From Agathobaculum sp. (GTDB taxonomy: Bacteria; Bacillota; Clostridia; Oscillospirales; Butyricicoccaceae): 64,000 nt of DNA. Shown piece by piece: positions 10,256 to 39,592 of the stretch. How positions within the stretch are numbered: the stretch's first letter is position 1; the number at the start of each line of letters is the position of its first letter. The notes beneath the pieces were generated by a model. The model had not been told where the DNA came from, made no database searches, and saw only the letters and a list, made by a program, of their open reading frames with translations. The DNA lies in contig NZ_JAXEOA010000011.1 of the NCBI RefSeq assembly GCF_034098985.1, positions 66,302 to 130,301 on the forward strand, read 5' to 3'. The translations under genes were made by a program, and so were the position numbers.

Positions 10256-10260
10256 AGAGA

Positions 10261-10690: not shown

Positions 10691-10790
10691 GCCTTGGATG
10701 AATAGAAACACCCCTCTGGCCGGACGGCTGGAGGGGTGTATGTGCTTTCATCAAGATTGTTTTTCAGCCTGAAGATGTTATAATAAAAAT

Positions 10791-10881
10791 GCGGAAGATG
10801 CTCCAGCGGACGGGTTTGGGGCAACAGGCGAAAGCCGCGTTGTCACCCGGTTACTAGCTCTTCCGTTTTTATTATTTTTTT
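10791..10881 (+). ncRNA. Candidate small structured RNA (class unknown)
   Basis: An extended -10 promoter (TGTTATAAT, 10776-10784) has TTGTTT about 16 nt upstream. An outer helix CGGAAGA(T)GCT / AGCTCTTCCG encloses a GAAA-capped hairpin (CAAC-A-GGC-GAAA-GCC-GC-GTTG), followed by a T-run. No same-strand gene lies downstream. Confidence 0.35.
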
Positions 10882-11190
10882 CCACTCGCCGGGGATAGGT
10901 TGCCTCATGCCTCGCAAAAGAATCCATAGCTGGCAGACAAATGTTTATAATCCGCTAAAATTTTGCACCCACCGACAGGGTTCGACAAAGTAAACACGTT
11001 CAAAGGCATATAGTCTAGGTAGATTCATTCTTCATTGCGAGGGCCGTCCTGAAAGGGGCGGCTTTCGCTTTGCAGGGTTCTAAACATACCGCCTGATAAA
11101 AACGGTTTAATGTTCTGCTGCAAGTGCAGGGAGGCGGTGCAATGGGCTGTAAAATTGTATATAAAAAATTTTCTCCGAGTGAGTTTCGCA

Positions 11191-23883: not shown

Positions 23884-23895
23884 AATAGACAGAAA

Positions 23896-23928
23896 ACGGG
23901 TATTTCCGCCGGAAATGCCCGTTTTTTG
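23896..23928 (+). terminator. Terminator after uvrA
   Basis: ACGGGTATTTCCG / CGGAAATGCCCGT followed by TTTTTT. Confidence 0.8.
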
Positions 23929-23967
23929 CATAGTTCATAAAAGTTGTTGAGGTATTGCCTCTGTTTT

Positions 23968-24010
23968 GGAATAATAGTGGCAGTTGAAAGACACGAGCCA
24001 TCCATAAACA
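23968..24010 (+). repeat. Degenerate duplicate of the recJ promoter/leader/start region
   Basis: GGAATAATAGTGGCAGTTGAAAGACACGAGCCATCCATAAACA aligns with 35276-35326. Shared blocks are ATAATAG, CAGTTGAAA, GAG and ATCCAT; ATG is ATA in this copy. Confidence 0.5.
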
Positions 24011-24109
24011 TTTATAGTGTTTATAACGTCTTTTGTGTTAAAATTAAAGCAGTTTAACAACTTTTAAAATCCGTATTTTCCACTGAGTACACTGAATGTT
24101 GTTGTAATT

Positions 24110-24132
24110 GTGGTCAAAATGTTGGTCAAAAA
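24110..24132 (+). repeat. Tandem TGGTCAAA motif, left copy
   Basis: GTGGTCAAAATGTTGGTCAAAAA, near-identical to 35164-35185. A single copy lies at 25766-25773. Confidence 0.5.
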
Positions 24133-24295
24133 TAGTACGATAAATTGCACTATAAACACACATGCATCTTGAATCAGTAATGGCGATAAAGGCCTATAGA
24201 AGCTGCGTATGGTACTATCAAGATAGCCTTAGAATCGCTTAGAACGTCGCTAAGGGACACTAACAGATAAATTCTAGATTCATTAATAACTCCAG

Positions 24296-24334
24296 AAAAA
24301 GCTCTGGCTGCTATTTAAGCAGCCAGAGCTTTTT
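24296..24334. terminator. Orphan bidirectional terminator in ORF-free AT-rich DNA
   Basis: AAAAA-GCTCTGGCTGC-loop-GCAGCCAGAGC-TTTTT. No credible gene ends next to it on either strand. Confidence 0.6.
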
Positions 24335-24468
24335 GCATATAGGGATTTATCGTCATTATAAGAAAAAGAAGATAAAAGGTCACTCTAAAGCGGCGATTGT
24401 CTGGCATCCGCACGGCATGACAAGAAAGACGTTTCGCAAAACAGGCATTGACTATTGGCATAAAATCA

Positions 24469-24486
24469 TATATTGTATACAATATA
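24469..24486. promoter_or_regulatory. 18-bp perfect palindrome, candidate LacI-family operator (autoregulatory)
   Basis: TATATTGTATACAATATA lies about 45 nt upstream of the LacI-type gene, and TTGACT lies at 24448-24453. Confidence 0.55.
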
Positions 24487-24532
24487 AAAGATATAATCAA
24501 AAAGCCTTGAGCGGGAATTGGGGGGAGAGCAG

Positions 24533-25534
24533 ATGTATACGAGACAGGATGTTGCAAAACTGGCGCATGTTTCAGTGGCGACCGTATCAAACGTCTTAAG
24601 CGGGAAGAAATATGTGAGCGCACCGCTGCAAAAACGCGTGCATGATGCAATCGAAGCGCTCGAATATCATCCCAATCAGGCTGCGCGCTGCCTTGCGACA
24701 AAACAGAGCCGGCATTTAGCGATTATCGTAAATGATATTTGCAATCCCCGCTATGCCGAGGTGACGGAAGCGATGCAAAAGGAGGCGGCTTCCCACGGGT
24801 ACATTGTTTCTATCGTCGATATCACGCGTTTTGGGATCGGAAACGGGCAGGTTTTTGATTTAATTGCACGAAACGTAGACGGCATTTTTGTGGCCACCTA
24901 TATTGATGAAATGCGAGCGGATATTGAGCGGGCGATGCAAAGCGGCATCTGTGTGGTTTCAGGGACGAGCGATTTAGGAGCGGTGCTGAAGATTGATTAT
25001 CAAGCGGCAATCGACGAGATGATTGCGGATTTGGCGGGGCTTGGGCATAGAAGCATTGGTTTTATCAGCTGCTACTCCATACACGAAACACAGCATGACA
25101 AATACAAATGCTATTGCCGCGCGCTGCAATCATGCGGCCTGCCGATAAATCCGTCTCTGGTTGTTGATGGCTGCCCGCCGTATCATGCGGATTTGGAAAC
25201 CGGATATGCCGCGACGCGCGAATTGCTTGCGCGCGGCATAGAACTGACGGCGGTATTTGCGGTGAACGATTTGGCGGCGATTGGAGCATGCCGTGCCATT
25301 CGGGAAGCGGGGCTTCGCATCCCACAGGATATCTCCGTGGTGGGATGCGACGATATCGCTTTTTCACAATATACGGAACCAAAGCTGTCCACTATCCATG
25401 TGCCCAAGGCAGAGATGGGCAGAAGAGCCGTACGCATGCTGAATTGCCAGCTGAACGGAGGCTCGTGTGAAAAAGTCTGCATGCCGTCCGGCTATGTGAG
25501 AAGGCAGACGGTGGCGTCCGCCAATGCGGGGTAA
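24533..25534 (+). CDS. LacI family transcriptional regulator
   Basis: MYTRQDVAKLAHVSVATVSNVLSGKKYVS is a LacI HTH, followed by a periplasmic-binding-fold core. SD is GGGGGGAGAG. Confidence 0.9.
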   Translation: MYTRQDVAKLAHVSVATVSNVLSGKKYVSAPLQKRVHDAIEALEYHPNQAARCLATKQSRHLAIIVNDICNPRYAEVTEAMQKEAASHGYIVSIVDITRFGIGNGQVFDLIARNVDGIFVATYIDEMRADIERAMQSGICVVSGTSDLGAVLKIDYQAAIDEMIADLAGLGHRSIGFISCYSIHETQHDKYKCYCRALQSCGLPINPSLVVDGCPPYHADLETGYAATRELLARGIELTAVFAVNDLAAIGACRAIREAGLRIPQDISVVGCDDIAFSQYTEPKLSTIHVPKAEMGRRAVRMLNCQLNGGSCEKVCMPSGYVRRQTVASANAG

Positions 25535-25557
25535 GCGGAATTGTGCGCGGCAAGAAG

Positions 25558-25595
25558 AAAGCGGTTCAGTCCGGAGGGGCTGAGCCGCTTTTTTG
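25558..25595 (+). terminator. Terminator after the LacI-type gene
   Basis: GCGGTTCAG / CTGAGCCGC stem (one G-U pair) followed by TTTTTT. Confidence 0.7.
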
Positions 25596-25805
25596 CGCCA
25601 ATTTGTGAAACAAGGGATAGCGATTGCGGTCCGGTAAAAACAGGCCCGGCACAGGAAAAGGAAAAATATAGAAAATAAATACGGATTAAAATTGATAAAA
25701 TACGCGCGTAACTTTAAAAAGGACGGAGATAGCTGACGAAAACATACAAATTTTCGCTTCATATTTGGTCAAATAATAAAAAATTTTTTATTGCGATAAA
25801 AATTA

Positions 25806-25843
25806 TTGACTTATAAGACTGGTGTGGTAGACTGTATACAATT
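25806..25843 (+). promoter_or_regulatory. Operon promoter with a second copy of the palindromic operator core
   Basis: TTGACT (25806-25811), 16-nt spacer, extended -10 TGGTAGACT. ACTGTATACAATT (25831-25843) shares TGTATACAAT with the palindrome at 24469-24486. Confidence 0.5.
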
Positions 25844-25895
25844 AAAGAGTAATAATCATAAAATAAAAAACGGAATTATATAAAGGGGTGAAGGC

Positions 25896-26528
25896 ATGCC
25901 TCATAAAAAGGTGCTCGAATATATTCCGATGGTCAAGTTTCTGGCACATATTCTGGGAGAGCATTGCGAGATCGTACTGCACGATCTGCAAAATAAAGAC
26001 AGTTCAATTTTGGCGATTGAAAACGGCTATTTAAGCGGCCGTTCCGTCGGCGGCGCGGCAACGGATTTTATCCTGCAAACCGTGCATACGGAAAGCTACA
26101 AAAATCGTGATTTTGAAAGCCGCTACATCGCAAAAACCTACAATAAGACCTTTTTATCGTCCAGTTACTTCATTAAGGATGACAAAGGCGAAATTGTCGG
26201 AACCTTATGTGTGAATATCGACAGCATGCCGTTTCAAAATGCCGTTGAGCTGCTGAATCAGTTTTTGCCGAAGCAGAGCAGCGGCAGAAACGAACCGGTG
26301 GAGCAGCTTTTGGGAGACACGAAGGAAATCGTACAAGCGATGGTCGAGCAAGTGGCGGGCCAGCTGCGGGTGCCGCGCGAGCGTATGTCCGTGCAGGAAA
26401 AAATGGCGGTGGTGAAGGAATTATCCGAGCGCGGCGCCTTTCAGTTACGCGGTGCTACTGGGGAAATCAGCAACGCGCTCGGCGTGTCGGAGCCAACCGT
26501 GTACCGCTATTTGAATAAAGTGAGATAG
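25896..26528 (+). CDS. YheO/DauR-like transcriptional regulator (PAS-like N-terminus plus C-terminal HTH)
   Basis: YIPMVKFLAHILGEHCEIVLHDLQN at the N-terminus, and the C-terminal HTH reads GATGEISNALGVSEPTVYRYLNKV. Confidence 0.8.
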   Translation: MPHKKVLEYIPMVKFLAHILGEHCEIVLHDLQNKDSSILAIENGYLSGRSVGGAATDFILQTVHTESYKNRDFESRYIAKTYNKTFLSSSYFIKDDKGEIVGTLCVNIDSMPFQNAVELLNQFLPKQSSGRNEPVEQLLGDTKEIVQAMVEQVAGQLRVPRERMSVQEKMAVVKELSERGAFQLRGATGEISNALGVSEPTVYRYLNKVR

Positions 26529-26572
26529 TCCGAAAAACGGATCATCATAATAATTTCTAGGAGGATGAAAAA

Positions 26573-27763
26573 ATGAAAAGAAAGACAAGAATTGGTGCGT
26601 TATTGACGGTTTTAGTCCTGATGACGGCGCTGGTATCCGGTTGCGGCGGCGGTGCGGGAGAAAGCGGCGCCGGCGGTTCGGCGGAGGGCAATATAAAAAT
26701 CGGCTTTTTCGCGCCGCTGACAGGCAATATGATGCAGTACGGCGTATCATTCCAAAATGCGATTGATATGAAGGTGGAGGACATCAACGCACAGGGCGGT
26801 ATTGACGGCCGGAAGATTGAAATTGTGCCGTTTGACGATAAGGGAGATCCCAAGGAAGCAGTTAACATTGCAAATAAAATTACGTCCGATCCGGATATCA
26901 AGGTGGCGATCGGTTCGTTTTCCTCGTCGTGTTCCATGGCGGCGGCGCCGGTGTTTGAACAGGCCGGTATCCTGCATTTGGGGCCGACTGCCTCCCATCC
27001 GGATTTCGTAACCATGGGGGATAAGGCCTTTACCATCGCTATGACCATGAAATTTGAAGCGGCGGCGGACGCGAATTATGCCTATCAGAAAACCGGCGGC
27101 AAGGATATGGCCATCATTTACTTAAACAGCGATTACGGCGTGTCCCATGCGAGCGTGCTCAAGGAACAGTACGAGGCGAACGGCGGCAAGGTCGTAGCAT
27201 ATGAGGAATTCATTCCCGGCCAGACCAAGGATTTTACGCCGCTCATCACCAAGGTGAAGCAGAGCAACCCCGGCTCGCTTTTTGTCATTGCGGATTACTC
27301 GGACGGTGCGAATATTTTCAAGCAGGCGCAGAAGCTGGATTTGAAATGCGATCTGATCGGCCCCGGCATGCTGATCAAGGATGAGTTTATCGACGTTGTC
27401 GGCGACGCGGCGGAGGGGCTGCTGATGCTTTCAACGCTGCCGATCTATTCCGAGGACGACCGCGAAAACAAGGACTCCAATAAAGCTGCCTTTGTTTCCG
27501 AGTATCAGGACAAGTACGGTGTAATTCCGGACGGTTTCCCGGCAAACGCCTATGACTGCATTACGCTGCTCACCAACATGATCGCGGAGGTTGGCTACGA
27601 TACGGATGCGCTGGCCGAGCAGTTCCGCCAGCTTGGCCGGTATGAGGGCGTTTCCGGCAACATCACGATTGATCCGGAGACAAAGGAAGTAAAGCGCGAC
27701 CTGATGGTCTACACCATTCAGGACGGGAAATATGTGATCGACGAGGTCGTTCCTGCTTCATAA
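26573..27763 (+). CDS. ABC transporter substrate-binding lipoprotein (LivK / branched-chain amino-acid type)
   Basis: Lipobox LVSGCGG. Type-I PBP pattern IKIGFFAPLTGNMMQYG...GGIDGRKIEIVPFDDKGDPKEA. Confidence 0.9.
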   Translation: MKRKTRIGALLTVLVLMTALVSGCGGGAGESGAGGSAEGNIKIGFFAPLTGNMMQYGVSFQNAIDMKVEDINAQGGIDGRKIEIVPFDDKGDPKEAVNIANKITSDPDIKVAIGSFSSSCSMAAAPVFEQAGILHLGPTASHPDFVTMGDKAFTIAMTMKFEAAADANYAYQKTGGKDMAIIYLNSDYGVSHASVLKEQYEANGGKVVAYEEFIPGQTKDFTPLITKVKQSNPGSLFVIADYSDGANIFKQAQKLDLKCDLIGPGMLIKDEFIDVVGDAAEGLLMLSTLPIYSEDDRENKDSNKAAFVSEYQDKYGVIPDGFPANAYDCITLLTNMIAEVGYDTDALAEQFRQLGRYEGVSGNITIDPETKEVKRDLMVYTIQDGKYVIDEVVPAS

Positions 27764-27817
27764 GCAGGTCTGCGCATACCAATGTCATGCGCGGTGAATC
27801 CGTAAGGGAGGGAAAAT

Positions 27818-28696
27818 ATGTTTTTTCAACAGGTCGTCAACGGTTTGACCATAGGCAGCATGTATGCGTTGGTTGCGATTGGCTATACAATGGTATTCGG
27901 CGTTTTAAAGCTGGTCAATTTCTCACATGGCTCCGTGTTTATGGTGGGCGCATACTTGACCCTACAGCTCAGTATCGCGCTCGGCGGACACTTCTTTTTG
28001 GCGGCGGCGCTCAGCCTGCTGCTGACCGGCGTGCTTGGCGTGGCGATTGACCGCTGCGCGCTGCGCCGTCTGCGCGAAAAGAAAGCGGATCGCATTACCG
28101 CGCTGATTTCCACGCTGGGCGTCGCCACAATTTTGGACAATGGCGTGATGATCGCGTTCGGCTCGGAGACTAAGGCGTTTCCGAATGTGCTGCAGCTGGG
28201 TAAATTTACGATCGGCGGCACCGTCGTCAGTTGGGTGCAGATCATTATTCTGCTTTTGGCGCTGGTGCTGATGGGAGCGATGAGCATTGTCGTTTACCGC
28301 ACCAAAATGGGACGCGCCATGCGCGCCACCTCGCAGAATGCGGACGCCGCGAAGCTAATGGGCATCAATGTAAATTATGTCGTGGCGTTCACGTTTTTTG
28401 TGGGCTCGCTGCTGGCCTCGGTCGCCGGCACGATGTACGGCATGTATTACGAGGCGATCGACCCGCTGATGGGCTCGGTCATCAGCATGAAAACCTTCGC
28501 CTGCGTGGTGCTGGGCGGCGTCGGCGTGCTGCCGGGCGCTATGCTGGGCGGGCTGCTGATCGGCGTGGTCGAAGCGGTTGGTGCGAGCTACATCAGCTCG
28601 GGATACCGGGACGCGATTGCGTTTGCAATTCTGATTTTGGTGCTCGTGCTTCGCCCGCAGGGCATCCTTGGCAAAAAAGTTGCCGATAAGATTTAA
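27818..28696 (+). CDS. Branched-chain amino-acid-type ABC permease (LivH-like)
   Basis: MFFQQVVNGLTIGSMYALVAIGYTMVFGVLKLVNFSHG is the canonical LivH N-terminus. Confidence 0.9.
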   Translation: MFFQQVVNGLTIGSMYALVAIGYTMVFGVLKLVNFSHGSVFMVGAYLTLQLSIALGGHFFLAAALSLLLTGVLGVAIDRCALRRLREKKADRITALISTLGVATILDNGVMIAFGSETKAFPNVLQLGKFTIGGTVVSWVQIIILLLALVLMGAMSIVVYRTKMGRAMRATSQNADAAKLMGINVNYVVAFTFFVGSLLASVAGTMYGMYYEAIDPLMGSVISMKTFACVVLGGVGVLPGAMLGGLLIGVVEAVGASYISSGYRDAIAFAILILVLVLRPQGILGKKVADKI

Positions 28697-28710
28697 GGAG
28701 GGGAGAGAAT

Positions 28711-29724
28711 ATGATGAATACCATTTATGCGCTCATGGCGAAAAAGCAAAAGCTGATTCAGCTGGTGCTTTTGGCCGCCGCAATCGTGTTTCCGCTGGCG
28801 GTTAAAAACCCATATGCAATCCGCTTGGCTATTTTGTCGGGTATCTTCGTGATTCTGTCCCTGAGCCTCAATCTGCTCACCGGCTTCGCGGGTCAAATTT
28901 CGCTGGGACATATCGCATTCTACGGGATTGGCGCGTACACCGCTGCGATCCTTTCCAAAAATTTCGGCGTGAATTTTATTCTGTGCATGCTGGCGGCCAT
29001 GGTGACCGCAGGGCTGTTCGGTTTTCTGCTGGGTCTGCCTACCTTGAAGCTGGGGGGTTACTATTTGGCCATTGTCACGCTCGGTTTTTCGGAAATTGTC
29101 CGTTTGGTGGAAATCAACTGGATGGAATTGACAAATGGGCCGTTGGGTATCAACGGCATTCCGAAGCCGGCGCTGTTTGGACTGAAATTATCCTCGCCGT
29201 CCGCCTATTACTTTATTTGCCTGCTTTTGGTGGTGCTGACGTTGGTGGTTATCCGCAATATCCTCAACTCCAGAATCGGCTATGCGCTGGGCACCGTCCG
29301 CGGGGACGATAACGCGGCGAAATTTATGGGGGTTAATGTATTTCGATATAAAATTTTGGCCTTTGTCATTTCGGCTGCGTTCGCCGGTTTGGCGGGCGCG
29401 TTCTTTGCACAGTACGTTACCTTTATCGACCCGACCAGCTTTGCGTCCGATCAATCGACGCTGATTTTGATTATGATAATCTTCGGCGGCATCGGCTCGC
29501 TGCCCGGCAGCATCATTGGCGCGGTCGTGCTGACGCTGGTGCCCGAGCTGTTGCGCGATCTGATGGAATACCGCATGCTGATTTACGGCGTGGTGCTGGT
29601 ATTTATGATGCTGGTACGGCCTGAAGGTCTGCTGGGAAAGATAAACTTTAAGCATATACGGCAGCAGGCCTCGGTCGGACGGCTGGGCGCCGCAAAACTT
29701 GGGAAGGACGGGGATGCCGCATGA
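28711..29724 (+). CDS. Branched-chain amino-acid-type ABC permease (LivM-like)
   Basis: LNLLTGFAGQISLGHIAFYGIGAYTAA is a LivM signature. Confidence 0.9.
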   Translation: MMNTIYALMAKKQKLIQLVLLAAAIVFPLAVKNPYAIRLAILSGIFVILSLSLNLLTGFAGQISLGHIAFYGIGAYTAAILSKNFGVNFILCMLAAMVTAGLFGFLLGLPTLKLGGYYLAIVTLGFSEIVRLVEINWMELTNGPLGINGIPKPALFGLKLSSPSAYYFICLLLVVLTLVVIRNILNSRIGYALGTVRGDDNAAKFMGVNVFRYKILAFVISAAFAGLAGAFFAQYVTFIDPTSFASDQSTLILIMIIFGGIGSLPGSIIGAVVLTLVPELLRDLMEYRMLIYGVVLVFMMLVRPEGLLGKINFKHIRQQASVGRLGAAKLGKDGDAA

Positions 29725-30488
29725 GCGAGACGATATTGCAAACACAGGATGTGGTGCAGCGCTTCGGCGGTCTGACCGCAGTCAACCGGGTTAGCATGAA
29801 GATCGAGAAAAACCAGATCGTCGGCTTGATCGGCCCCAACGGCGCCGGGAAAACGACTTTTTTCAACGTGATCACGGGCGTCAACACGCCGACGGAAGGA
29901 AGCGTTGCGTTTAAGGGGCGGATGATAACGGGACTTCCGGCCCATCAAATTGTGGAGCATGGGATTGCGCGCACCTTTCAAAACATCCGTCTGTTTAAGA
30001 ATATGACCGCACAGGAAAACGTCATCGCGGGCATGCATTCCAGAACGAAATCAACGCTGCTTGACTGCATTTTTCGAACCCCGCGCCACAGAAAAGAGAC
30101 GAGGGAGTGCGAGGCGCGGGCGGATGAGCTGCTGCGGCTGGTCGGTCTGTATGAATACCGCTTTGATTTGGCGACCAGCCTGCCGTACGGACACCAGCGG
30201 CGTTTGGAAATTGCCCGCGCACTGGCCAGCGATCCGGTATTGCTGCTGCTCGACGAACCGGCGGCCGGTATGAACGAGCAGGAGACGGCGGAGCTTCTTT
30301 CGTTCATCTGCCAAATTCGGGACATGGGATACACGATCCTGCTGATCGAGCACGATATGAAATTGGTGATGAGCGTTTGCGAAAATATTTACGTGCTCGA
30401 CCACGGAGAGCTGATCGCGCAGGGCGAACCCGAGCAAATCAAGAACGACGCGCGCGTCATCGAAGCATATCTTGGAAAGGAGGCTTGA
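29721..30488 (+). CDS. ABC transporter ATP-binding protein (LivG-like)
   Basis: Walker A GPNGAGKTTFFN, signature LPYGHQRRLEIARAL, and a LivG-type C-terminus (VIEAYLG). Confidence 0.9.
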   Translation: MSETILQTQDVVQRFGGLTAVNRVSMKIEKNQIVGLIGPNGAGKTTFFNVITGVNTPTEGSVAFKGRMITGLPAHQIVEHGIARTFQNIRLFKNMTAQENVIAGMHSRTKSTLLDCIFRTPRHRKETRECEARADELLRLVGLYEYRFDLATSLPYGHQRRLEIARALASDPVLLLLDEPAAGMNEQETAELLSFICQIRDMGYTILLIEHDMKLVMSVCENIYVLDHGELIAQGEPEQIKNDARVIEAYLGKEA

Positions 30489-30490
30489 GC

Positions 30491-31198
30491 ATGGCGTTTC
30501 TCAAAATTGAAAACCTGCACGTCCATTATGGCGCGATCCACGCACTGAAAGGAATCAGCTTGGAAGTCAATCAGGGTGAAATCGTCACGCTGATCGGCTC
30601 TAACGGCGCGGGTAAAACGACGACGATGTACACGGCTGCGGGTATACTCAAGCCGTCCGCCGGTAAAATCATTTTCGAGGACGAAGATATCACAAAGCTG
30701 GACGCGCCGCATATTGTCCAGCGTGGAATTTGCCTGTCTCCGGAGGGCAGACAGGTGTTTCCTGAGCTCACCGTTAAGGAAAATTTGGATTTGGGCGCGT
30801 TTTTACGCACCTCCCGCGAGCGGGACGAAACGCTGGAGGTGGTATACGAGCTGTTTCCGCGCATTAAGGAGCGCATGCATCAGGCGGCGGGCACGCTGTC
30901 GGGCGGGGAGCAGCAAATGCTTGCGGTTGGCCGCGCGCTGATGGGCAAGCCCAAGCTGCTGATGCTGGACGAGCCATCGCTCGGTCTGGCGCCGATCATC
31001 ATTCAGGAGATTTTCAACCTGATCGTGCGGATCAATAAATTGGGAACCACCATTTTACTTGTCGAACAGAACGCAAAAATGGCGCTGCGCATATCGAGCC
31101 GCGGGTACGTACTGGAAACCGGTAAAATCGTGCTCAGCGATCGGGCGGATGCTTTGCTGACAAGCGAAAAGGTTCGCGCCGCGTATTTGGGAGGTTAA
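30491..31198 (+). CDS. ABC transporter ATP-binding protein (LivF-like)
   Basis: MAFLKIENLHVHYG, Walker A GSNGAGKTTT, signature LSGGEQQMLAVGRAL. ATG 30491 follows the livG-like stop. Confidence 0.9.
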   Translation: MAFLKIENLHVHYGAIHALKGISLEVNQGEIVTLIGSNGAGKTTTMYTAAGILKPSAGKIIFEDEDITKLDAPHIVQRGICLSPEGRQVFPELTVKENLDLGAFLRTSRERDETLEVVYELFPRIKERMHQAAGTLSGGEQQMLAVGRALMGKPKLLMLDEPSLGLAPIIIQEIFNLIVRINKLGTTILLVEQNAKMALRISSRGYVLETGKIVLSDRADALLTSEKVRAAYLGG

Positions 31199-31201
31199 AC
31201 G

Positions 31202-32491
31202 GTGGAAACATTGACGAATCAAGAGCGTTTCCTCAAAATCATGGAAAAAGAAATGGTTCCCGCGGTTGGCTGCACGGAACCGATAGCCGTTTGCTATACG
31301 GCGGCTGTCGCGCGGAAGCATGCGCCCGACAAGGTGAAAAAGGTGCGCTGCCGCGCCAGCGTCAATATTATTAAAAACGTGGCTTCGGTCACGATTCCCG
31401 GAACGCACGGCAGAAACGGCATGAAACTGGCCTGCGCGCTTGGCGTTGCAAAGCCCGATGTGGATCGCAAGCTGGAAATCCTCGACGGCTTGACGGAGGA
31501 ACAGCTTCAAACGGCTGTTTCTCTGGTGGAGGAGGGGCTGGTCGAGGTGGAAATGGCTGACGTGAAGTGCGCGCTCTACATTGAAGTCGAGATCGAGACG
31601 GAGCTGCACAAGGTCAGGACGATCACGCAGTATGCGCATGTAAACACCACGCTGCTTGAAGTAGACGGAAAACTTGAGCATACGTTAAACGAGGGGGAGC
31701 GGACGGAGCAGACGGACGAGCTCTATCAGGCGCTGAATTTAAAGACAATTTTGGATTTTTCCAATACGGTTCCCATGAAAGATTTGTCCATTGTGCAAAA
31801 CGCCATCAAAACGAATACGGCAATTGCAAAGGATGGCCTTGCGCGGGAGTATGGCTTGCAGGTTGGGAAAACGCTTTCCGAATCGGTGGACAAGCTGATG
31901 CTGTCGAACGATTTGGCGACCTATGCGATGATGCTGGCGTCCGCAGGGTCGGACGCCAGAATGGCGGGAAGCTCGCTGCCGGCCTATTCCAACTCGGGTT
32001 CCGGCAATCAAGGAATCACGGCGACCATGCCCGTCGCCGCCGCGGCGGAGAAGCTGAACGCCACGGAAGAGCAGACCGTCCGCGCCTGCGCGATCAGCAA
32101 TTTGACGGCTATTTTCATTAAGCATAAGCTGGGAAAGCTTTCCTCGGTATGCGGCGCGATTGTCGCGGCGACAGGAGCCGCCTGCGGAATCGTCTATTTG
32201 ATGGGCGGAAAATTGCCGGAAACGGTCAGCGCGGTCAAAAACATGCTGGGAAACGTGGCGGGAATGTTTTGCGACGGCGCGAAGGCAAGCTGCGCGCTGA
32301 AGGTATCCACCTGCGCCAACGCGGCGGTGCAGGCGGCGATTCTAGCGATGAACACGCATTATATCAAGGGAACCGACGGCATTGTCGGCAATACGGCGGA
32401 TGAAACCGTGGCAAATTACTGCCGCATTTTGTCGGAAGGCGTACCGGAACTTGATAAAACGCTTTTGGATATAATCATCAGCAAGGAATAA
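31202..32491 (+). CDS. UPF0597 / CyuA (YhaM)-like protein, related to serine dehydratase alpha chain and L-cysteine desulfidase
   Basis: VPAVGCTEPIAVCYTAAVA near the N-terminus, ~430 aa, Cys-containing C-terminal region (GMFCDGAKASCALK). GTG 31202 lies 7 nt after GGAGG. Confidence 0.75.
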   Translation: METLTNQERFLKIMEKEMVPAVGCTEPIAVCYTAAVARKHAPDKVKKVRCRASVNIIKNVASVTIPGTHGRNGMKLACALGVAKPDVDRKLEILDGLTEEQLQTAVSLVEEGLVEVEMADVKCALYIEVEIETELHKVRTITQYAHVNTTLLEVDGKLEHTLNEGERTEQTDELYQALNLKTILDFSNTVPMKDLSIVQNAIKTNTAIAKDGLAREYGLQVGKTLSESVDKLMLSNDLATYAMMLASAGSDARMAGSSLPAYSNSGSGNQGITATMPVAAAAEKLNATEEQTVRACAISNLTAIFIKHKLGKLSSVCGAIVAATGAACGIVYLMGGKLPETVSAVKNMLGNVAGMFCDGAKASCALKVSTCANAAVQAAILAMNTHYIKGTDGIVGNTADETVANYCRILSEGVPELDKTLLDIIISKE

Positions 32492-32561
32492 GAACGAAGG
32501 CGGCGGGCGCCCGTTGAAGAACGCCGCCGCAATCGCATTATAAACGGAAAGGAAGTATGAA

Positions 32562-33584
32562 ATGACAGCAACTCAGCGGATGAAAGCCATGGTAAACGGA
32601 CAGCCGGTCGACCGTGTCGGTGTGTCGGCGTGGAAGCATATTTATTTGGAGGACCGGCATCCGGTTGATTTTGTAAAGCGTACCTGCTCCTTCCAGCAGG
32701 ATAATGATTGGGATTTCGTCAAAGTAAGCTACAACGGATATTTGATGCCCGAAGCATTCGGCGCTGATATCGCATGGAGTCCGGATTCCAATACGTTTCC
32801 AACGATGCTAAAACATAACGTCAATCATCCGGCGGAGTGGGCGGAGCTCAAACCGGCCAGCGTTACCGAGGGTGCGCTGCGGCGTGAAATCGACGCAACG
32901 GCGCGCATGGTTGAGCATTTTAAGGGAGAGGTTCCGATTCTGCCGACGATTTTCAGCCCGTTAACCGCAGCGCAGGAAATGTCGTGCGGCTGGCTGAACC
33001 CTTGGCCGCTGATGGCCGATATGCAATACAGCCCGAGCGAACTGCATCAGGGCTTGGAAATCATTGCGGAGACGACGGCGCGGTTTATGGAGGAACTGGT
33101 CAAGGTCGGCGTCGACGGTGTGTTTTTCGCCACGCAGCTTGCGTGCTATAACCGCGCGACGAAGGAGCAGTATGACGAATTCGGCCGCAAGTACGATCTT
33201 AAGCTGCTCGACGCGATTCAGGATAAAACTTGGCTGAATATGGTGCATATCCATGGCGCGGAGCAGCTGTTCTTCACGGAAATCGAGGATTATCCGGTGC
33301 AGGCCTTTAACTGGGAGGATATCAATAGCAATATTTCGCTTGCGTACGCGCGTGCGCATACGGATAAGATTCTTTGCGCGGGCATTGAGCATGTACATGA
33401 CTTTTACGAACCCGATCGCGCGGTATTAAAGGAAAAGCTGCGCGCGCGCGTCCAAACGGCGATCGCAGCCGCCGGCAAGGAAAAGCTGGTGATCGGGCCG
33501 GGCTGCGTTGTGCCGACGGATGTGCCGGAATACCGCCTTACCGTGCTGAAGGAAGTCGTTGAGGAGATGGGTGCAAATGGCTGA
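32562..33584 (+). CDS. Uroporphyrinogen decarboxylase (URO-D) fold family protein
   Basis: 340 aa. The N-terminus (MTATQRMKAMVNGQPVDRVGVSAW) and overall pattern resemble URO-D/MtaA-like proteins. No corrinoid-protein gene lies nearby. Confidence 0.7.
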   Translation: MTATQRMKAMVNGQPVDRVGVSAWKHIYLEDRHPVDFVKRTCSFQQDNDWDFVKVSYNGYLMPEAFGADIAWSPDSNTFPTMLKHNVNHPAEWAELKPASVTEGALRREIDATARMVEHFKGEVPILPTIFSPLTAAQEMSCGWLNPWPLMADMQYSPSELHQGLEIIAETTARFMEELVKVGVDGVFFATQLACYNRATKEQYDEFGRKYDLKLLDAIQDKTWLNMVHIHGAEQLFFTEIEDYPVQAFNWEDINSNISLAYARAHTDKILCAGIEHVHDFYEPDRAVLKEKLRARVQTAIAAAGKEKLVIGPGCVVPTDVPEYRLTVLKEVVEEMGANG

Positions 33585-34611
33585 TACGGCGAAAAAGGCG
33601 CGGATCGGCATTCTGGGCTGCGGGCAGATCGTCAAGATCCGGCATGCGCCCGAGCTGGCCGCGTGCCGGTGGGCGGAGCCCGCGGGTTTCTATGATTTTT
33701 ATCCTGAACGCGCGGAAGAATACGCCGCCCAATATGGCGGCAGGGCATATGCGGATTATCATGATATGCTCGCCGACCCCACTGTTGACGGCGTGGTCGT
33801 CTGCACGGCAAACAATGCGCATGCCGCCATGTCCATTGAAGCGCTGCAAGCCGGGAAATATGTATTGTGCGAGAAACCCATGGCTACGACGCGGGAGGAC
33901 GCCGAACGGATTTTGCGGGTGGAAAAAGAGAGCGCCGGCTTTTTTATGGCGGCGCACAATCAGCGGTTTACGCTGGCACACAAAACGGCCAAAGCGCTGC
34001 TGGCGAGCGGAGAAATGGGAAAGGTGCTGTCCTTTCGCTGCACCTTGGCGCATCCGGGTCCAGAGCGGTTTAGCGTAAACCGTTCAAATGCGACTTGGTA
34101 TTTTAACAAAGCGGCCTCCGGTTTGGGCTGCGTGTCCGATCTGGGCATTCATAAATGCGATGTTTTAATGCATATCCTTGGCGAGCCGATCACATCGGTT
34201 GGCGCGATTGCCGGCACGCGCGATAAACGGGACGAAAGCGGAAAGCTCGCCGCAATTTATGATAACGCGGTATGTGTGCTGGAAACGGCTTCGGGTATCA
34301 TGGGAACACTCAGTCTGTCCTATACCAATTACGGTGGAATGGAGAATACGACCGTATATTACTGCGAAAAAGGCGTGCTTCGCGTACAATACCATCCGGA
34401 CTGTGCGCTGGAGGTCGTCATGGACGGGGGACAAACGACCCGCTATTATGACGTTCCGAATCCACGTTCAGGCGTCGTAGATGCTTTTGCCGAAGCGATT
34501 GTGACAGAAAAAGCGTCGCCGATAGCGGCCGCGCAGGCCTTTCAGGCAATGAAAACCGTTTTTGCGATTGATGAAGCCGCGCGCAGCGGGTCGTTTGTGA
34601 AAATAGGGTAA
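33577..34611 (+). CDS. Gfo/Idh/MocA family oxidoreductase
   Basis: ARIGILGCGQIVKIRHAPEL is a Rossmann N-terminus and CEKPMATT is the family motif. ATG 33577 overlaps the preceding stop by 8 nt. Confidence 0.85.
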   Translation: MADTAKKARIGILGCGQIVKIRHAPELAACRWAEPAGFYDFYPERAEEYAAQYGGRAYADYHDMLADPTVDGVVVCTANNAHAAMSIEALQAGKYVLCEKPMATTREDAERILRVEKESAGFFMAAHNQRFTLAHKTAKALLASGEMGKVLSFRCTLAHPGPERFSVNRSNATWYFNKAASGLGCVSDLGIHKCDVLMHILGEPITSVGAIAGTRDKRDESGKLAAIYDNAVCVLETASGIMGTLSLSYTNYGGMENTTVYYCEKGVLRVQYHPDCALEVVMDGGQTTRYYDVPNPRSGVVDAFAEAIVTEKASPIAAAQAFQAMKTVFAIDEAARSGSFVKIG

Positions 34612-34619
34612 GGCAAGAT

Positions 34620-34877
34620 GACAGACAATCCCCTATATATCTCCTTCTGCATCGTCGGCCGGTATAAATCCCATGCGGGACGGCTGCATCCTGTTACAGG
34701 GAAAGCATCGAAGTCTTTGGCTTCGGTGCTTTTCACTCTTTTCTTAAATATGGCGCATTTCTATAATGCAGTTTTTGCACACGATCTTCCTCTTGTAGTT
34801 CACAAGGTCATCGGACATCCGCAGAATATGCAATTCGGCATATATTTTTTAAGACGACGTTTTCAGTGGATTTCATA
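34620..34877 (-). pseudogene. Gene remnant: good SD plus ATG but the frame breaks after 22 codons
   Basis: On the reverse strand AGGAGTG, a 7-nt spacer, then ATG at 34877 gives MKSTENVVLKNICRIAYSADVR*. Coding-like stretches continue in other frames (DDLVNYKRKIVCKNCIIEMRHI*). I recognise no family. Confidence 0.3.
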
Positions 34878-34984
34878 ATAAGTACACTCCTAAATAAATT
34901 TTACATGTTTTAAGTGATCTACATTCTTCGACATTGATCTACCATTCCTCCCCATCTCTTTTCATATTTATCATATATGCGTTT

Positions 34985-35017
34985 AAAATATGGCTGCCAT
35001 CTTGGCAGCCATATTTT
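34985..35017. terminator. Orphan bidirectional terminator at the right island edge
   Basis: 15-bp perfect stem AAAATATGGCTGCCA / TGGCAGCCATATTTT with a 3-nt loop. Confidence 0.6.
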
Positions 35018-35163
35018 CATGCCGTTTCATCGATCGCCGTCATAAGAAAGGAAGATAATTGTTTTAAACTTACGCTGGATGTATATGCAAAATCAACCTC
35101 GAGCATGAAGGAAGAATCGGTAAGAAAGTTCGAAAATATGATTGCGCTCTCGTCAATCCAATA

Positions 35164-35185
35164 GTGGTCAAATATTGGTCAAAAA
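35164..35185 (+). repeat. Tandem TGGTCAAA motif, right copy
   Basis: GTGGTCAAATATTGGTCAAAAA; compare 24110-24132. Confidence 0.5.
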
Positions 35186-35254
35186 CATAATGACTTAATA
35201 ATTTTGGAGTTTATCATGATGTTTTGTTTCTAAAACCCTCAAATTTCAAACTTA

Positions 35255-35283
35255 TTGCGAATCTATTCGCGCTATGGTATAAT
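35255..35283 (+). promoter_or_regulatory. recJ promoter with an overlapping palindrome
   Basis: TTGCGA (35255-35260), 17-nt spacer, TGGTATAAT (35275-35283). The inverted repeat GCGAAT-CT-ATTCGC lies at 35257-35270. Confidence 0.55.
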
Positions 35284-35317
35284 AATAGCAGTTGAAAATA
35301 AAAATGAGGGAGTATCC

Positions 35318-37390
35318 ATGAAAACAAAACGATGGGTAGTCGCCGCTCCGGATCGGGAACGCGTGCGCGCGTTGACCCAACAGGGCGGGTTTGCACCGCT
35401 GACTGCGGCGGTGCTTGCCGCCCGCGGCATCGACACGCCGGAGGCCGCCGCGGACTATCTGAGCTGTGAAACGTCTGGTCTGCACGACCCGATGCTGCTC
35501 GCCGATATGGACCGGGCGGTCGCCGTCATCCGGGGGGCGCTGCAGCGGGAAGAACGGATCGTCGTGTATGGCGACTACGATGTGGACGGTATCACGGCGA
35601 CCTGCATCTTGGTGCGCTATCTGCGCTCGGTGGGCGCCGTGTGCGATTATTATATTCCAAACCGTTTGAGCGAGGGCTACGGCCTGACACGCGAATCCAT
35701 GACCGAGCTGTATGAAAAGGGTACGCGCCTGCTGATCACTGTTGATTCGGGCATTACAGCTAATGAGGAGATCGACATAGCGCGGGCGCTTGGCATGCGT
35801 GTGGTGGTTACCGATCACCACGAGTGCCACGATACGCTGCCCGCCGCGGACGCGGTGGTCGACTATAAGAGGCCGGGCTGTTCGTACCCGTTCTGCCATC
35901 TGGCAGGCGTGGGCGTTGCATTCAAGCTGGTGTGCGCGCTGTCGGGCGACGCAGAGGGCATGCTGAAACAATATGCCGACCTGATTGCCCTCGGCACGGT
36001 GGCCGACGTGATGCCCATTGTGGGCGAAAACCGCGTCATTGTGGCCGCGGGCCTGCGCAGGATGGCGGAAACGAGCAACCTCGGCCTGGAAATGCTGTTG
36101 CGGGAAGCCGGTATGAAAAACAGGCGGCTTACCAGCTCGACAATCAGCTTCGTGCTCGCCCCGCGCATCAACGCCGCCGGGCGTATGGGCAAGGCCGAGC
36201 TCGCCGCCGAATTGTTCCTGACGGACGCCGCCGTGCGCGCGCAGGAGCTTGCCGCCGAGCTCTGCGAGCAGAACAAGCTGCGGCAGAACGAGGAAAACCA
36301 GATTTTAGAGCAGGCGCTTTTGCGCCTGCGCGCCGAATATAATCCCATGGAGGACCGCATCATCGTGCTCGCGGGCGAAAACTGGCACCATGGCGTGATC
36401 GGCATCGTGTGTTCGCGCCTGTGCGACCGGTACGGTTGTCCGGTCGTGCTGATCGCGCTCGACGAGCATACGGGCAAGGGATCGGGACGGTCGGTCAAGG
36501 GCTTTAACCTGTTTGAGGCGCTCGCTTCGTGTGAAGATCTGCTGGAAAAATACGGTGGGCATGAGCTTGCCGCCGGACTGACGGTCTCGCGCGGGCAGGT
36601 CGAAACGCTGCGCGCACGGCTCAAAGCCTATGCGGAAGACCGGGTGGACGCGGCGGACATCCAGCCGCAGCTGCATATCGACTGCGCAATCGAGCCTGCG
36701 TGGATCACCGAGCAGAATATTGAGAGCCTCAGCGTGCTCGAACCCTACGGCATGCAGAACGCCGAGCCGGTCTTCTGTATGAAAGATATGACAGTCGAGG
36801 AGATCACGCCCATCTCGAGCGACCGCCACGTGCGGCTAACGCTGTCCAAGGGCGGCTCTAGATGGACGGCGATGCTGTTCGGCACTGGTGTGGGCGGATG
36901 CGGCTTTGTGGAGGGCAACACGGTAGACGCGGCGTTTCATTTGGAGATCAACGAGTTTCGAAGCAGGCGCACGGTGCAGCTCACGCTGTGTGATGTTCGG
37001 CTGAGCGAATGTGAAAACCTGGCCGATCAGAAGCTTTTGAACCTATACAATACTTACATGGCCGACGGCCCGCTGACCGCGCCAGAGGCGCGCGTGTTGC
37101 TGCCCGACCGGGCCGATCTGGTCGCGGTGTGGCGGCATGTCGTGTGCCGCGCGGAGGACGGGCGGCTGACCGTGCCGTCAAACGCGCTTTCGCGCCGCAT
37201 CGCGTGGGAGAGCCGGAGAAGCATCAACATTGGCAAGCTGTTTGTCTGCCTGGATGTATTTTCTGAGTCGCAGCTCATCAGCTACCATTTCAAAGAAGGC
37301 ATGCTCAACATCATTCTCAAGCACTATGAGGGCAAGGCCGATATATCGGGCTCGGTCGTGCTGGCCACACTGCAAAGCATGGCGGGCTGA
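35318..37390 (+). CDS. recJ: Single-stranded-DNA-specific exonuclease RecJ
   Basis: DHH motifs (VYGDYDVDGITA, VVVTDHHEC) and a DHHA1 region. ATG 35318 follows GAGGGAG. Confidence 0.95.
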   Translation: MKTKRWVVAAPDRERVRALTQQGGFAPLTAAVLAARGIDTPEAAADYLSCETSGLHDPMLLADMDRAVAVIRGALQREERIVVYGDYDVDGITATCILVRYLRSVGAVCDYYIPNRLSEGYGLTRESMTELYEKGTRLLITVDSGITANEEIDIARALGMRVVVTDHHECHDTLPAADAVVDYKRPGCSYPFCHLAGVGVAFKLVCALSGDAEGMLKQYADLIALGTVADVMPIVGENRVIVAAGLRRMAETSNLGLEMLLREAGMKNRRLTSSTISFVLAPRINAAGRMGKAELAAELFLTDAAVRAQELAAELCEQNKLRQNEENQILEQALLRLRAEYNPMEDRIIVLAGENWHHGVIGIVCSRLCDRYGCPVVLIALDEHTGKGSGRSVKGFNLFEALASCEDLLEKYGGHELAAGLTVSRGQVETLRARLKAYAEDRVDAADIQPQLHIDCAIEPAWITEQNIESLSVLEPYGMQNAEPVFCMKDMTVEEITPISSDRHVRLTLSKGGSRWTAMLFGTGVGGCGFVEGNTVDAAFHLEINEFRSRRTVQLTLCDVRLSECENLADQKLLNLYNTYMADGPLTAPEARVLLPDRADLVAVWRHVVCRAEDGRLTVPSNALSRRIAWESRRSINIGKLFVCLDVFSESQLISYHFKEGMLNIILKHYEGKADISGSVVLATLQSMAG

Positions 37391-37411: not shown

Positions 37412-39592
37412 ATGCAAGATAAATTGGATTTTTTGCTGGAGCGCGTAAAGAAACAAAACCCGCAGGCCAATATCAAGAAGATACGCGCCGCCTATGAGTG
37501 CGCGACCGCCGCGCACGAGGGTCAGAAACGGAAAAACGGCGAGCCGTATATCATCCATCCGGTCTCGGTGGCTGAAATCATTATCGAAATGGGGCTGGAC
37601 ACGGATTCCATCTGCGCCGGCCTGCTGCACGACTGCATTGAGGATACCCAGTTTGGCTACCGAGAGATCGAGAATAAATTCGGCACCCCGGTGGCGGAGT
37701 TGGTCGACGGCGTGACCCGCCTGGGTATGCTGCGCTATTCCAAGGAGCAGGAGCAGTTTGAGGATCTGCGCAAGATGTTTTTGGCGATGGCAAAGGATAT
37801 CCGCGTCATCCTCATCAAGCTGGCCGACCGTCTGCACAACATGCGCACCATCCAATACCTTCCCGAGCGTAAGCAGCGCGACAAAGCGCTCGAAACCATG
37901 GAAATTTACGCACCGATCGCGCACCGTCTCGGTATGCAGCGCGTCAAGTGGGAGCTGGAGGACCTGTCCCTGAAATGTCTGGATCCTATCGGCTACAACG
38001 AGATCGTCGAGGGTCTGCGCGCGCAGAGCGACCAGCATGAAGAGTTTTTACAGGGTATTACCGCGCGCATCAGCGGCAAGCTTAGGGAAGCGGGCATCGA
38101 AAACCATATTTCAGCGCGCGTCAAGCACATTTATTCGATCTACCGCAAAATGTACGCCCAGCATAAGACCATCAATGAGATTTACGATATCTGCGCAGTG
38201 CGCGTGATCGTAGACACTGTGGCAGACTGCTATAACGTGCTCGGCTATGTGCACGATCTGTATAAGCCCATTCCCGGACGCTTTAAGGACTATATTTCAA
38301 CGCCCAAGCCCAATGGCTACCAGTCACTGCACACGACGGTTATCGGCCGCGCGGGCATTCCGTTTGAAATCCAGATCCGCACGGCGGAAATGCACAAAAC
38401 AGCGGAATACGGCGTCGCGGCGCACTGGAAATACAAGCAGGGGCTGGATAAGGCGGGCAACGAGCAGGCTTTCGCGTGGATTCGCCAGCTTCTCGAAGCG
38501 CAGCAGGACACCGAGGCAGAGGATTTCATTAAAAACATCAAGGTCGACCTGTTTGCCGACGAGGTGTTCGTCTTCACGCCCAAAGGGGACGTGGTCAACA
38601 TGCCGGCCGGAGCGACGCCGATCGACCTTGCGTATGCGATCCACTCGGCGGTCGGCAACCGTATGACCGGCTGCAAGGTAAACGGCCGCATCGCGCCGAT
38701 CGACAGCCAGCTCAAAAACGGCGACATCGTCGAGATTTTGACCTCCAAGGAAGCGCGCGGCCCGTCGCGCGATTGGGTCAAGATCGTCAAGACGACCGAG
38801 GCGCGCAATAAGATCAAGCAGTGGTTCAAAAAGGAATGCCGCGAGGAGAACATCGTCAACGGCCGCGACGACCTAGATCGCGAGCTGCGCGCCAATCTGC
38901 TTTATAACGGTTTTTATGAAAACGAGGACGTGCGCAAAAACGCGCTCAACAAGTTTTCTTTCAACACGCTCGACGAGCTTTACGCCGCGATCGGCTACGG
39001 CGGCATCACGCTGACCAAGGTCATTAACAAGATCAAGGACGATGTGGGCCGCATCCGCCGCCAGCATGAGCTGACCGACCGGGTCAACCAGCCGCCGCAG
39101 AGCGAGCCGCGCCGCCCGTCCAAAAGCCATTCGGGCGTCATCGTCGAGGGCATCGATAACTGCTTAGTCAAGTTCGCGCGGTGCTGTACGCCGATCCCGG
39201 GCGATGAGATCGTCGGCTTTGTCACACGTGGATACGGCGTATCCATCCACAGGCGCGACTGCGTCAACGTCCATATCGAGGAGGACCCGGATCGTTGGGT
39301 CAACGCCTGGTGGGACGAGGGGCTGGCGATCAGTGACCGCAGCAGCCGGTTCTCTACCGGCTTGCAGATCTCGACCCGCAGCCGCATCGGCGTACTGAGC
39401 GACGTGACGGCGGTGCTCGCCGCCTGCAAGATCAATGTGCACGAGATTTCGGCGCGCGACCTGAATGATGGCTTTGGCGTGATCAACGCGATGGTCGACG
39501 TGGCGGGCGTGCACCAGCTAGACAATCTCATCAGCCGCCTGCGCTCGATCAAGGGTGTGCTCGATGTGACGCGCACAGTGGATACGAATTAA
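37412..39592 (+). CDS. relA: Bifunctional (p)ppGpp synthetase/hydrolase RelA/SpoT family
   Basis: 726 aa with an HD hydrolase domain (HPVSVAEII...LHDCIEDT), synthetase, TGS and ACT-like domains. Confidence 0.95.
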   Translation: MQDKLDFLLERVKKQNPQANIKKIRAAYECATAAHEGQKRKNGEPYIIHPVSVAEIIIEMGLDTDSICAGLLHDCIEDTQFGYREIENKFGTPVAELVDGVTRLGMLRYSKEQEQFEDLRKMFLAMAKDIRVILIKLADRLHNMRTIQYLPERKQRDKALETMEIYAPIAHRLGMQRVKWELEDLSLKCLDPIGYNEIVEGLRAQSDQHEEFLQGITARISGKLREAGIENHISARVKHIYSIYRKMYAQHKTINEIYDICAVRVIVDTVADCYNVLGYVHDLYKPIPGRFKDYISTPKPNGYQSLHTTVIGRAGIPFEIQIRTAEMHKTAEYGVAAHWKYKQGLDKAGNEQAFAWIRQLLEAQQDTEAEDFIKNIKVDLFADEVFVFTPKGDVVNMPAGATPIDLAYAIHSAVGNRMTGCKVNGRIAPIDSQLKNGDIVEILTSKEARGPSRDWVKIVKTTEARNKIKQWFKKECREENIVNGRDDLDRELRANLLYNGFYENEDVRKNALNKFSFNTLDELYAAIGYGGITLTKVINKIKDDVGRIRRQHELTDRVNQPPQSEPRRPSKSHSGVIVEGIDNCLVKFARCCTPIPGDEIVGFVTRGYGVSIHRRDCVNVHIEEDPDRWVNAWWDEGLAISDRSSRFSTGLQISTRSRIGVLSDVTAVLAACKINVHEISARDLNDGFGVINAMVDVAGVHQLDNLISRLRSIKGVLDVTRTVDTN

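Follow-up and report, generated by a model that had tools for sequence, protein, structure and literature searches.

Why are uvrA and recJ, which are neighbours in related genomes, 11.4 kb apart in one Agathobaculum genome? The question is raised by a stretch of 64,000 nucleotides of Agathobaculum sp. (assembly GCF_034098985.1, contig NZ_JAXEOA010000011.1, positions 66,302 to 130,301), hereafter called the window and numbered from its first nucleotide, where uvrA extends to 23883 and recJ begins only at 35318. A preliminary description had read the intervening block as an island inserted into the 5' region of recJ with duplication of the target, and the sequence comparisons reported here support that reading. 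The distance from the end of uvrA to the ATG of recJ, counted at loci with DNA upstream of recJ, is 140-390 bp, and usually about 160 bp, in about 26 loci of a genome collection made of species representatives (one genome per species) and in about 20 metagenome contigs of Agathobaculum type. In the outgroups Butyricicoccus and Intestinibacillus, uvrA and recJ are likewise adjacent, with a spacer in the same range of 140-390 bp. All these relatives carry a single-copy empty site, and none of the ten island genes was found within 6-10 kb of the spacer in any of them. Judged by this distribution, the block at 23990-35274 (11.3 kb) is a lineage-specific genomic island in the uvrA-recJ spacer.

On the same distribution, one gain in the lineage of the window is far more parsimonious than many precise losses. 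Loss would be mechanically easy, as deletion between direct repeats such as the copies of repeat P described below is easy, and the window lineage is a long branch, its RecJ being at most 81% identical to anything else. Yet the idea of an ancestral island that every relative lost through recombination between the two copies of P would have to account for the short spacer in all sampled Agathobaculum species and in the outgroup genera by many precise losses or by an implausible root. Moreover, the ranking of identities already suggests that the window lineage lies within Agathobaculum, the outgroups lacking the island; the GC content of the island is lower than that of other window genes, and its edges are unique. 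We thus regard an ancestral island as very improbable. The difference in composition that had been anticipated was found for overall GC content (0.541 in island genes versus 0.580 in the other genes of the window, Mann-Whitney p = 3e-4), whereas that at third codon positions (0.654 versus 0.691) reached only p = 0.06; the shift relative to the other window genes is modest. As had also been described, the edges are AT-rich (GC 0.34-0.46) and hold no open reading frame (ORF) with a family match.

We then focused on the exact limits of the block. In relatives, the spacer has a fixed order: the uvrA terminator, GCATAAAAATGTTGAGC (the -35 box), a spacer of 15-17 nt, TGGTATAAT, and then AAT-GTAAT-AAAATAAATGAGGGAG-N4-6-ATGAAAACA. 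The left edge of the window (23884-23989) retains the ancestral terminator (hairpin at 23890-23929, plus strand, -25.9 kcal/mol, z = -7, which aligns with the terminator of the relatives), a -35 box TTGAGG, an ancestral-looking spacer and TGGAATAATAGTGGCAGTTGAAA, where homology to the relatives stops. At the right edge, homology resumes at TGGTATAATAATAGCAGTTGAAA (35275) and runs through the leader, the Shine-Dalgarno sequence (SD) and the ATG into recJ. A 23-bp direct repeat, P, in which 20/23 positions are identical, forms the overlap of the two junctions. P-left lies at 23967-23989 (possibly extending to 24010) and P-right at 35275-35297, from which the ancestral leader, SD and ATG run on without a break to 35330 (both copies on the plus strand). 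These are the only two matches to P in the window at up to 3 mismatches, with none expected by chance, and both align with the single uvrA-recJ spacer of the relatives. Since CAGTTGAAA is common to both copies and absent from the spacers of 24 relatives, the copies are related to each other and not only to the ancestral spacer.

The preliminary description had recognized in the left copy a decayed duplicate of the recJ promoter and start region, with shared blocks running on to GAG, ATCCAT and AAACA. The 23 bp of P bear out the duplication. The extension to 24010/35326, aligned with both ends anchored, scored 2.5 against -4.3 +/- 2.1 in shuffles (8/3000 reach it), in a test whose endpoints were picked after seeing the data, and with free end gaps it was not significant; only 23 bp of the duplicate are statistically firm, and an extension to about 45-50 bp is weakly supported. 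Upstream of P, 13/29 positions match (p about 0.02), which could reflect a real extension or convergence of the -35 boxes. Decay alone does not describe the left copy either: compared with the ancestral spacer, both copies are chimeric, the left being ancestral upstream and the right ancestral downstream, which is the pattern of the attL and attR attachment (att) sites of an integrated element. The direct repeats at the two ends are each continuous with one side of the site that is uninterrupted in relatives, and the junctions fall exactly where homology to the spacer of the relatives begins or ends.

The edges share not two repeat pairs, as first noted, but three. The second pair, R2, is a tandem TGGTCAAAA with a period of 11-12 bp, arranged as TGGTCAAAA-N3-TGGTCAAAA at 24106-24132 and as TGGTCAAAT-N2-TGGTCAAAA at 35160-35185 (both plus strand). 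The third, R3, joins a bidirectional terminator hairpin to an A/G-rich tail of 27 nt: on the left (24296-24375) the hairpin at 24296-24334 (-29.7 kcal/mol) is followed by the tail at 24349-24375, and on the right (34985-35058) the hairpin at 34985-35017 (-22.1 kcal/mol) is followed by the tail at 35033-35058, again on the plus strand. Both orphan terminators, already noticed in the preliminary description, are strong (z about -7), and the alignment of 24305-24375 with 34991-35058 indicates that they are copies of each other. R3 is roughly two-thirds identical over about 70 nt, compared with 87-89% for P and R2. The pairs, all three on one strand, are arranged in a mirrored, nested order (P-R2-R3 on the left, R3-R2-P on the right).

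Could such repeats be mere chance, or convergence of promoter- and terminator-like sequences in AT-rich DNA, with no defined junction? Their components, -10 boxes, A-tracts and GC-rich hairpins, are indeed low-complexity functional motifs, and the similarity of the -35 region upstream and of the SD and ATG downstream is marginal. Nevertheless, in a repeat-pair test with 400 dinucleotide-preserving shuffles (best score per shuffle: mean 12.8, 95th percentile 16, 99th percentile 18, maximum 20), R3 scored 21, R2 19 and P 17, so that R2 and R3 exceed the 99th percentile and P the 95th. In a separate test, the local score of R2 was 37 against a maximum of 32 in 500 shuffles, which upholds the second shared motif of the preliminary description; the edge repeats as a whole beat the shuffled controls that it had called for. 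Together with the counts of P and the match between junctions and homology limits, these scores largely refute the chance explanation, to which we attach a next to negligible probability. A fourth pair (24007-24043 / 35197-35235) fits the order but is weak and not significant. Overlapping it, between R2-right and P-right, lies a five-codon stub with a ribosome-binding site (35206-35233: GGAG, 6 nt, then ATGATGTTTTGTTTCTAA).

Comparison with relatives establishes both the insertion and its limits; how the DNA recombined is what we infer from them. We propose, with a probability of roughly one in two, that the block is a fossil integrative island, resembling a cis-mobilizable element (CIME), that entered site-specifically at an att-like site in the recJ promoter through a lambda-type tyrosine integrase. 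A circular element would have entered the uvrA-recJ spacer at a short site overlapping the -10 box and the transcription start region of recJ, by conservative site-specific recombination most likely catalyzed by such an integrase, P-left and P-right being the cores of attL and attR. The predicted circle junction (attP), ...CGCGCTATGGTATAATAATAGCAGTTGAAAGACACGAGCCATCC..., would leave ...CTCTGTTTTGGAATAATAGTGGCAGTTGAAAATAAAAATGAGGGAG... as the predicted empty site (attB). Tandem TGGTCAAAA pairs lie 116 bp to the right of P-left and 89 bp to the left of P-right; when the island is circularized on P, the order becomes R3-101 nt-R2-89 nt-P-116 nt-R2-172 nt-R3. The circle junction would therefore resemble attP, with tandem TGGTCAAAA repeats on both arms at the positions of arm-type integrase sites, for which R2-left is a candidate. 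The integrase module would later have been deleted, or would only ever have been supplied in trans, leaving a CIME-like remnant. Site-specific integration is favoured because of the chimeric attL/attR pattern, the tandem repeats on both arms, at distances usual for the arm-type sites of an attP of about 240 bp (PMC4111918), and a repeat length within the 10-60 bp that is typical of the att direct repeats of integrative elements (PMC5812530).

Several observations weigh against this proposal. The right copy of P has a -10 box closer to that of the relatives than the left copy has, so that a pure att model must assume that the element carried a very good imitation of this box or that the left copy mutated afterwards. 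The arm-type role of R2 is read from position only, the inclusion of R3 in attP is ad hoc, and the R2 motif led to no related element with an integrase. No gene for an integrase, excisionase, relaxase or transposase, nor a detectable remnant of one, was found in the island, its edges or the 56 main ORFs of the 64-kb window, and searches of the edge DNA against phage and plasmid collections returned only short chance matches or none. In addition, all contigs of the species are 100% identical, and the closest other RecJ in the databases searched is 81% identical; because no genome exceeds that value, the crossover point and the true empty site cannot be fixed.

This sampling can be described further. 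The best identity of the window RecJ was at most 81% among 185,579 species-representative genomes, metagenome contigs and 5.8 billion proteins. Its nearest matches are Agathobaculum species (80-81%), followed by A. butyriciproducens (77%) and A. hominis (72%), with Butyricicoccus and Intestinibacillus at about 60-69%; no match between 81% and 100% was found in the genomes, the contigs or the protein database. The window therefore belongs to an unsampled Agathobaculum-like lineage. Exact look-ups returned the window proteins only from three sequencing runs of one project, on contigs 100% identical to the window, and effectively one clone is therefore known. As to the flanking genes, uvrA (21046-23883, plus strand) encodes 945 amino acids, 85-91% identical to UvrA of Agathobaculum loci, and recJ (35318-37390, plus strand) is followed by relA/spoT (37412-39592).

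The absence of recombination genes, which the preliminary description had stated and which a search of the edges for recombinase remnants upholds, was seen at several levels. All ten island genes are assigned to Pfam families other than recombinases, uvrA, uvrB and recJ contain no recombinase domain, and the small ORFs of the edges have no Pfam or PHROG match. No phage-related genes (integrase, repressor, replication or packaging) occur in the island, and neither backbone remnants of integrative and conjugative or integrative and mobilizable elements (ICEs and IMEs) nor related intact elements were found in phage, plasmid and viral collections or in the fetched loci. Similarity to the edges is also absent from viral contigs and from all fetched loci, and the edge hairpin motif and the predicted 20-mer of the attP junction are absent from viral contigs. 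Neither RNA genes nor a tRNA lie at the junctions. Tandem R2 was found in none of the relatives.

Some candidates were considered and discarded. An ORF end at 35040-35164 (...FKLTLDVYAKSTSSMKEESVRKFENMIALSSIQ*) resembled, to our eye, a tyrosine integrase C-terminus and has the position expected for the end of int. With no Pfam or PHROG match, no phage tblastn match at E <= 10 and no candidate among the 5.8 billion proteins, this idea is unsupported; it was dropped and is not claimed here. R2 was also considered as the conserved 3' tail of an integrase gene, but its 20-mer occurs in five viral contigs in unrelated contexts. In those more distant genera where no uvrA precedes recJ, a survey of the upstream DNA for integrated elements revealed only metabolic genes. 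Between the operon of the island and R3-right, on the minus strand (34612-34876), a good ribosome-binding site (AGGAG) and 10 nt precede an ATG at 34876 and an ORF of 22 codons (MKSTENVVLKNICRIAYSADVR), the reading of which runs on in two other frames; none of its family matches is convincing, the best being a PHROG family of unknown function (E = 0.37), and it may be a frameshifted pseudogene.

The lack of any detected recombinase or remnant also speaks for insertion without one. In that case a foreign fragment carrying a stretch similar to the recJ promoter, circular or linear, and derived from transformation or from an aborted element, would have been joined to the chromosome by Campbell-type or homology-facilitated illegitimate recombination, duplicating P, with R2 and R3 as unrelated internal repeats of the incoming DNA. 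Both copies share the lineage-specific CAGTTGAAA, and possibly ATCCAT, as if the incoming DNA bore the promoter of this very lineage. Moreover, the cargo diverges from its counterparts on two gut metagenome contigs (71-91% amino acid identity) about as much as housekeeping proteins do between Agathobaculum species (80-91%), which makes a donor within the family plausible. However, 23-50 bp of imperfect homology is a poor substrate for RecA, and this course of events explains neither the two further repeat pairs that flank P at roughly similar distances (R2 at about 90 and 116 bp) nor the sharp switch between ancestral upstream and ancestral downstream sequence in the two copies. We consider it possible but rather unlikely. 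Between site-specific and illegitimate or homologous insertion, the evidence does not decide.

Insertions seem to have occurred repeatedly in the uvrA-recJ spacer of Agathobaculum. In A. hominis this spacer holds a repeated element of about 206 bp (L024:9654-9915) between perfect 28-bp copies of the uvrA terminator hairpin. Besides a hairpin and a ribosome-binding site, this element carries a small conserved ORF (MGTFGRPC...); it has no Rfam match. A second copy in the same locus (L024:513-715) has no flanking duplication, and diverged copies are found both elsewhere and in the uvrA-recJ spacer of several relatives (L026:1374-1592, L110:1-104, L117:5694-5771, L125:234-297, L130:1760-1823, L008:12089-12174 and L009:6165-6236).

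That A. hominis case, which demonstrates insertions with long duplications at hairpins in the genus, and in which, as with R3, a terminator hairpin was duplicated, lends some appeal to the idea of successive insertions, each into the previous insert like Russian dolls and each duplicating 23-70 bp of its target, in the order P, R2, R3. Nested, mirrored repeats on the same strand would be the expected outcome. Then again, the innermost pair, R3, should be the youngest, yet it is the least similar (about two-thirds versus 87-89%); no enzyme is known whose target duplications vary so much in length; no duplication flanks the second copy of the 206-bp element; and three independent events at one spot are unparsimonious. 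Taken together, successive insertion is unlikely.

How does the island, read as the remnant of a site-specifically integrated element, compare with known systems? CIMEs are decayed integrative elements of Firmicutes that keep attL and attR and have lost the genes for integration and transfer (PMC5704250). The island shares with them the att-like direct repeats, a cargo, the absence of integration and transfer genes and an empty site intact in relatives; it differs in having no detectable remnant of an ICE or IME backbone, no known cognate integrase and no known related ICE, and in its target, a promoter instead of the 3' end of a tRNA or protein gene. Because att-like repeats and an empty site were found and an integrase and backbone remnants were not, we call it CIME-like, not a proven member of the CIMEs. 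Its ends recall att sites of the lambda type in the direct repeat of 23 (up to about 50) bp, in the short tandem repeats with a period of 11-12 bp about 90-120 bp from the core on both arms, and in a reconstructed junction of about 270 bp between the R2 copies, where lambda attP measures about 240 bp and bears integrase binding sites on its arms (PMC4111918). In contrast to lambda, the island has no integrase, binding is only putative, and the outer pair R3 has no counterpart.

A functional parallel is given by the phage-like chromosomal islands of Streptococcus pyogenes (SpyCI), which sit in the 5' end of the repair gene mutL (PMC3430984, PMC4689407); in the decayed SpyCIM5, expression of the downstream gene is restored by a promoter that lies within the defunct int gene (PMC3430984). 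In the window, likewise, an island occupies the 5' control region of a DNA-repair gene, and element DNA supplies part of the promoter (the -35 box of recJ). SpyCI, on the other hand, have an integrase and phage-like genes and excise dynamically, whereas the present island has only metabolic genes and regulators. With composite transposons and islands bounded by insertion sequences it has in common an accessory block with repeats at both ends; but there is no transposase, the edges have no terminal inverted repeats (the best inverted alignment, found at the lacI operator, has a score of 27, inside the range of the shuffles), and the duplication of at least 23 bp is much longer than target-site duplications usually are.

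Insertion at this point has consequences for the transcription of recJ. On the left, a remnant of the old recJ promoter (23947-23975, plus strand) consists of the -35 box TTGAGG, a 17-nt spacer and a weakened -10 box, AATAAT (9/12 in a promoter scan, with TG), the -35 box and spacer of which align with the relatives. In this -10 box an A stands in place of the T of TATAAT, a T that is kept in 10/10 aligned relatives and in all 24 spacers. The present promoter (35255-35283, plus strand; TTGCGA, 17 nt and TATAAT with an extended TG, scan 10/12), the best match ahead of recJ, takes its -35 box and spacer from the island and its -10 box from P-right, and recJ is thus predicted to be transcribed from a hybrid promoter, half host and half island. 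The left promoter copy faces a strong terminator 300 bp downstream, and at the other end the operon terminator (34700-34734, plus strand, 16-pair stem, -23.2 kcal/mol) and R3-right follow each other ahead of recJ, which would therefore be insulated from the operon. By the same logic, the bidirectional terminators of the edges would shield the island from read-through out of uvrA, as well as recJ from the operon. In this promoter, a perfect 14-bp palindrome of island-derived DNA (35257-35270, GCGAAT-CT-ATTCGC) fills the spacer that separates the -35 box from the -10 box; it could be the binding site of a regulator acting on recJ.

The cargo, all on the plus strand, starts with a LacI-family regulator (24533-25534; Pfam LacI and Peripla_BP_3). 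The operon that comes after it has nine genes, not the ten given in the preliminary description, and ends at its own terminator at 34700-34734. Its first gene encodes a YheO-like regulator (25896-26528; PAS_6 and HTH_22). This is followed by a Liv-type ABC importer (26573-31198), composed of a binding protein (26573-27763; Peripla_BP_6), two permeases (27818-28696 and 28711-29724; BPD_transp_2) and two ABC ATPases (29721-30488 and 30491-31198), and by three enzymes (31202-34611), of the SDH_alpha (31202-32491), URO-D (32562-33584) and Gfo/Idh/MocA oxidoreductase (33577-34611) families. None of the island proteins matched an NCBIfam equivalog above its cut-off. The cargo is a self-contained unit, with a predicted role in the uptake and breakdown of a small nitrogen- or sugar-containing compound.

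A palindrome of a repeat family, ATATTGTATACAATAT (24470-24485), sits within the lacI promoter, probably as the operator on which the LacI regulator of the island acts. Its core, ATTGTATACAAT (24472), recurs with one mismatch before the operon, where a second operator-like palindrome of the family, ACTGTATACAAT, occupies 25831-25842; the number of matches was reached by no shuffle. The same palindrome at both promoters suggests that LacI controls lacI as well as the operon.

Counterparts of the cargo were found on two gut metagenome contigs (L166:1-11029 and L169:1-11029), where an eight-gene cluster comprising the importer and the SDH_alpha, URO-D and Gfo genes lies between unrelated flanks; the cluster is thus conserved in other gut bacteria. 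The stretch from livJ to gfo (26699-34583) is 74% identical to them in nucleotides and 71-91% in amino acids. Ahead of the cargo, these contigs encode an M20 peptidase, a short-chain dehydrogenase and a 388-amino-acid protein to which no Pfam family was assigned; neither lacI nor the yheO-like gene nor the edges have a counterpart there. A more distant related cluster (L172:2195-13223), with amino acid identities of 62% for Gfo, 52% for LacI and 34% for URO-D and with an M20 peptidase, is situated a few kb upstream of a UvrA-like paralogue, which shares about 41-45% identity with the UvrA of the window.

Elsewhere in the window, two adjacent tRNA-Leu genes (10059-10143 and 10170-10255) are followed on the minus strand by a gene of markedly low GC content (11191-12984; 0.425 versus about 0.58) encoding a membrane glycerophosphodiester phosphodiesterase, possibly a further case of gene acquisition beside a tRNA; no integrase was found near 10059-12984. 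The window also encodes two paralogues of type III pantothenate kinase (Pan_kinase; 54044-54871 and 60261-61091), no more than 6 kb apart.

What does the island mean for its host? We regard it as a well-documented but fairly ordinary fossil genomic island, which opens no new mechanism unless its nested repeat architecture proves functional. A more far-reaching view, that P, R2 and R3 are functional att arms of an island that can still be moved in trans, or else that the repeats record an undescribed insertion process in the genus, strikes us as quite improbable. If the arms were functional, the island could leave and re-enter and thereby exchange the -35 half of the recJ promoter, which would place a repair gene of a gut commensal under a switch like that of SpyCI; if the second were true, the process would target promoters and terminators and leave duplications of 23-70 bp, with the 28-bp case of A. 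hominis among them. The locus also illustrates that islands devoid of an integrase can be delimited to the base by comparison with relatives. Overall, it represents a clean, well-bounded case of a gut Firmicute gaining a regulated nutrient-uptake operon, in which the promoter of an essential function, recJ, would have survived being split into a half of host DNA and a half of island DNA.

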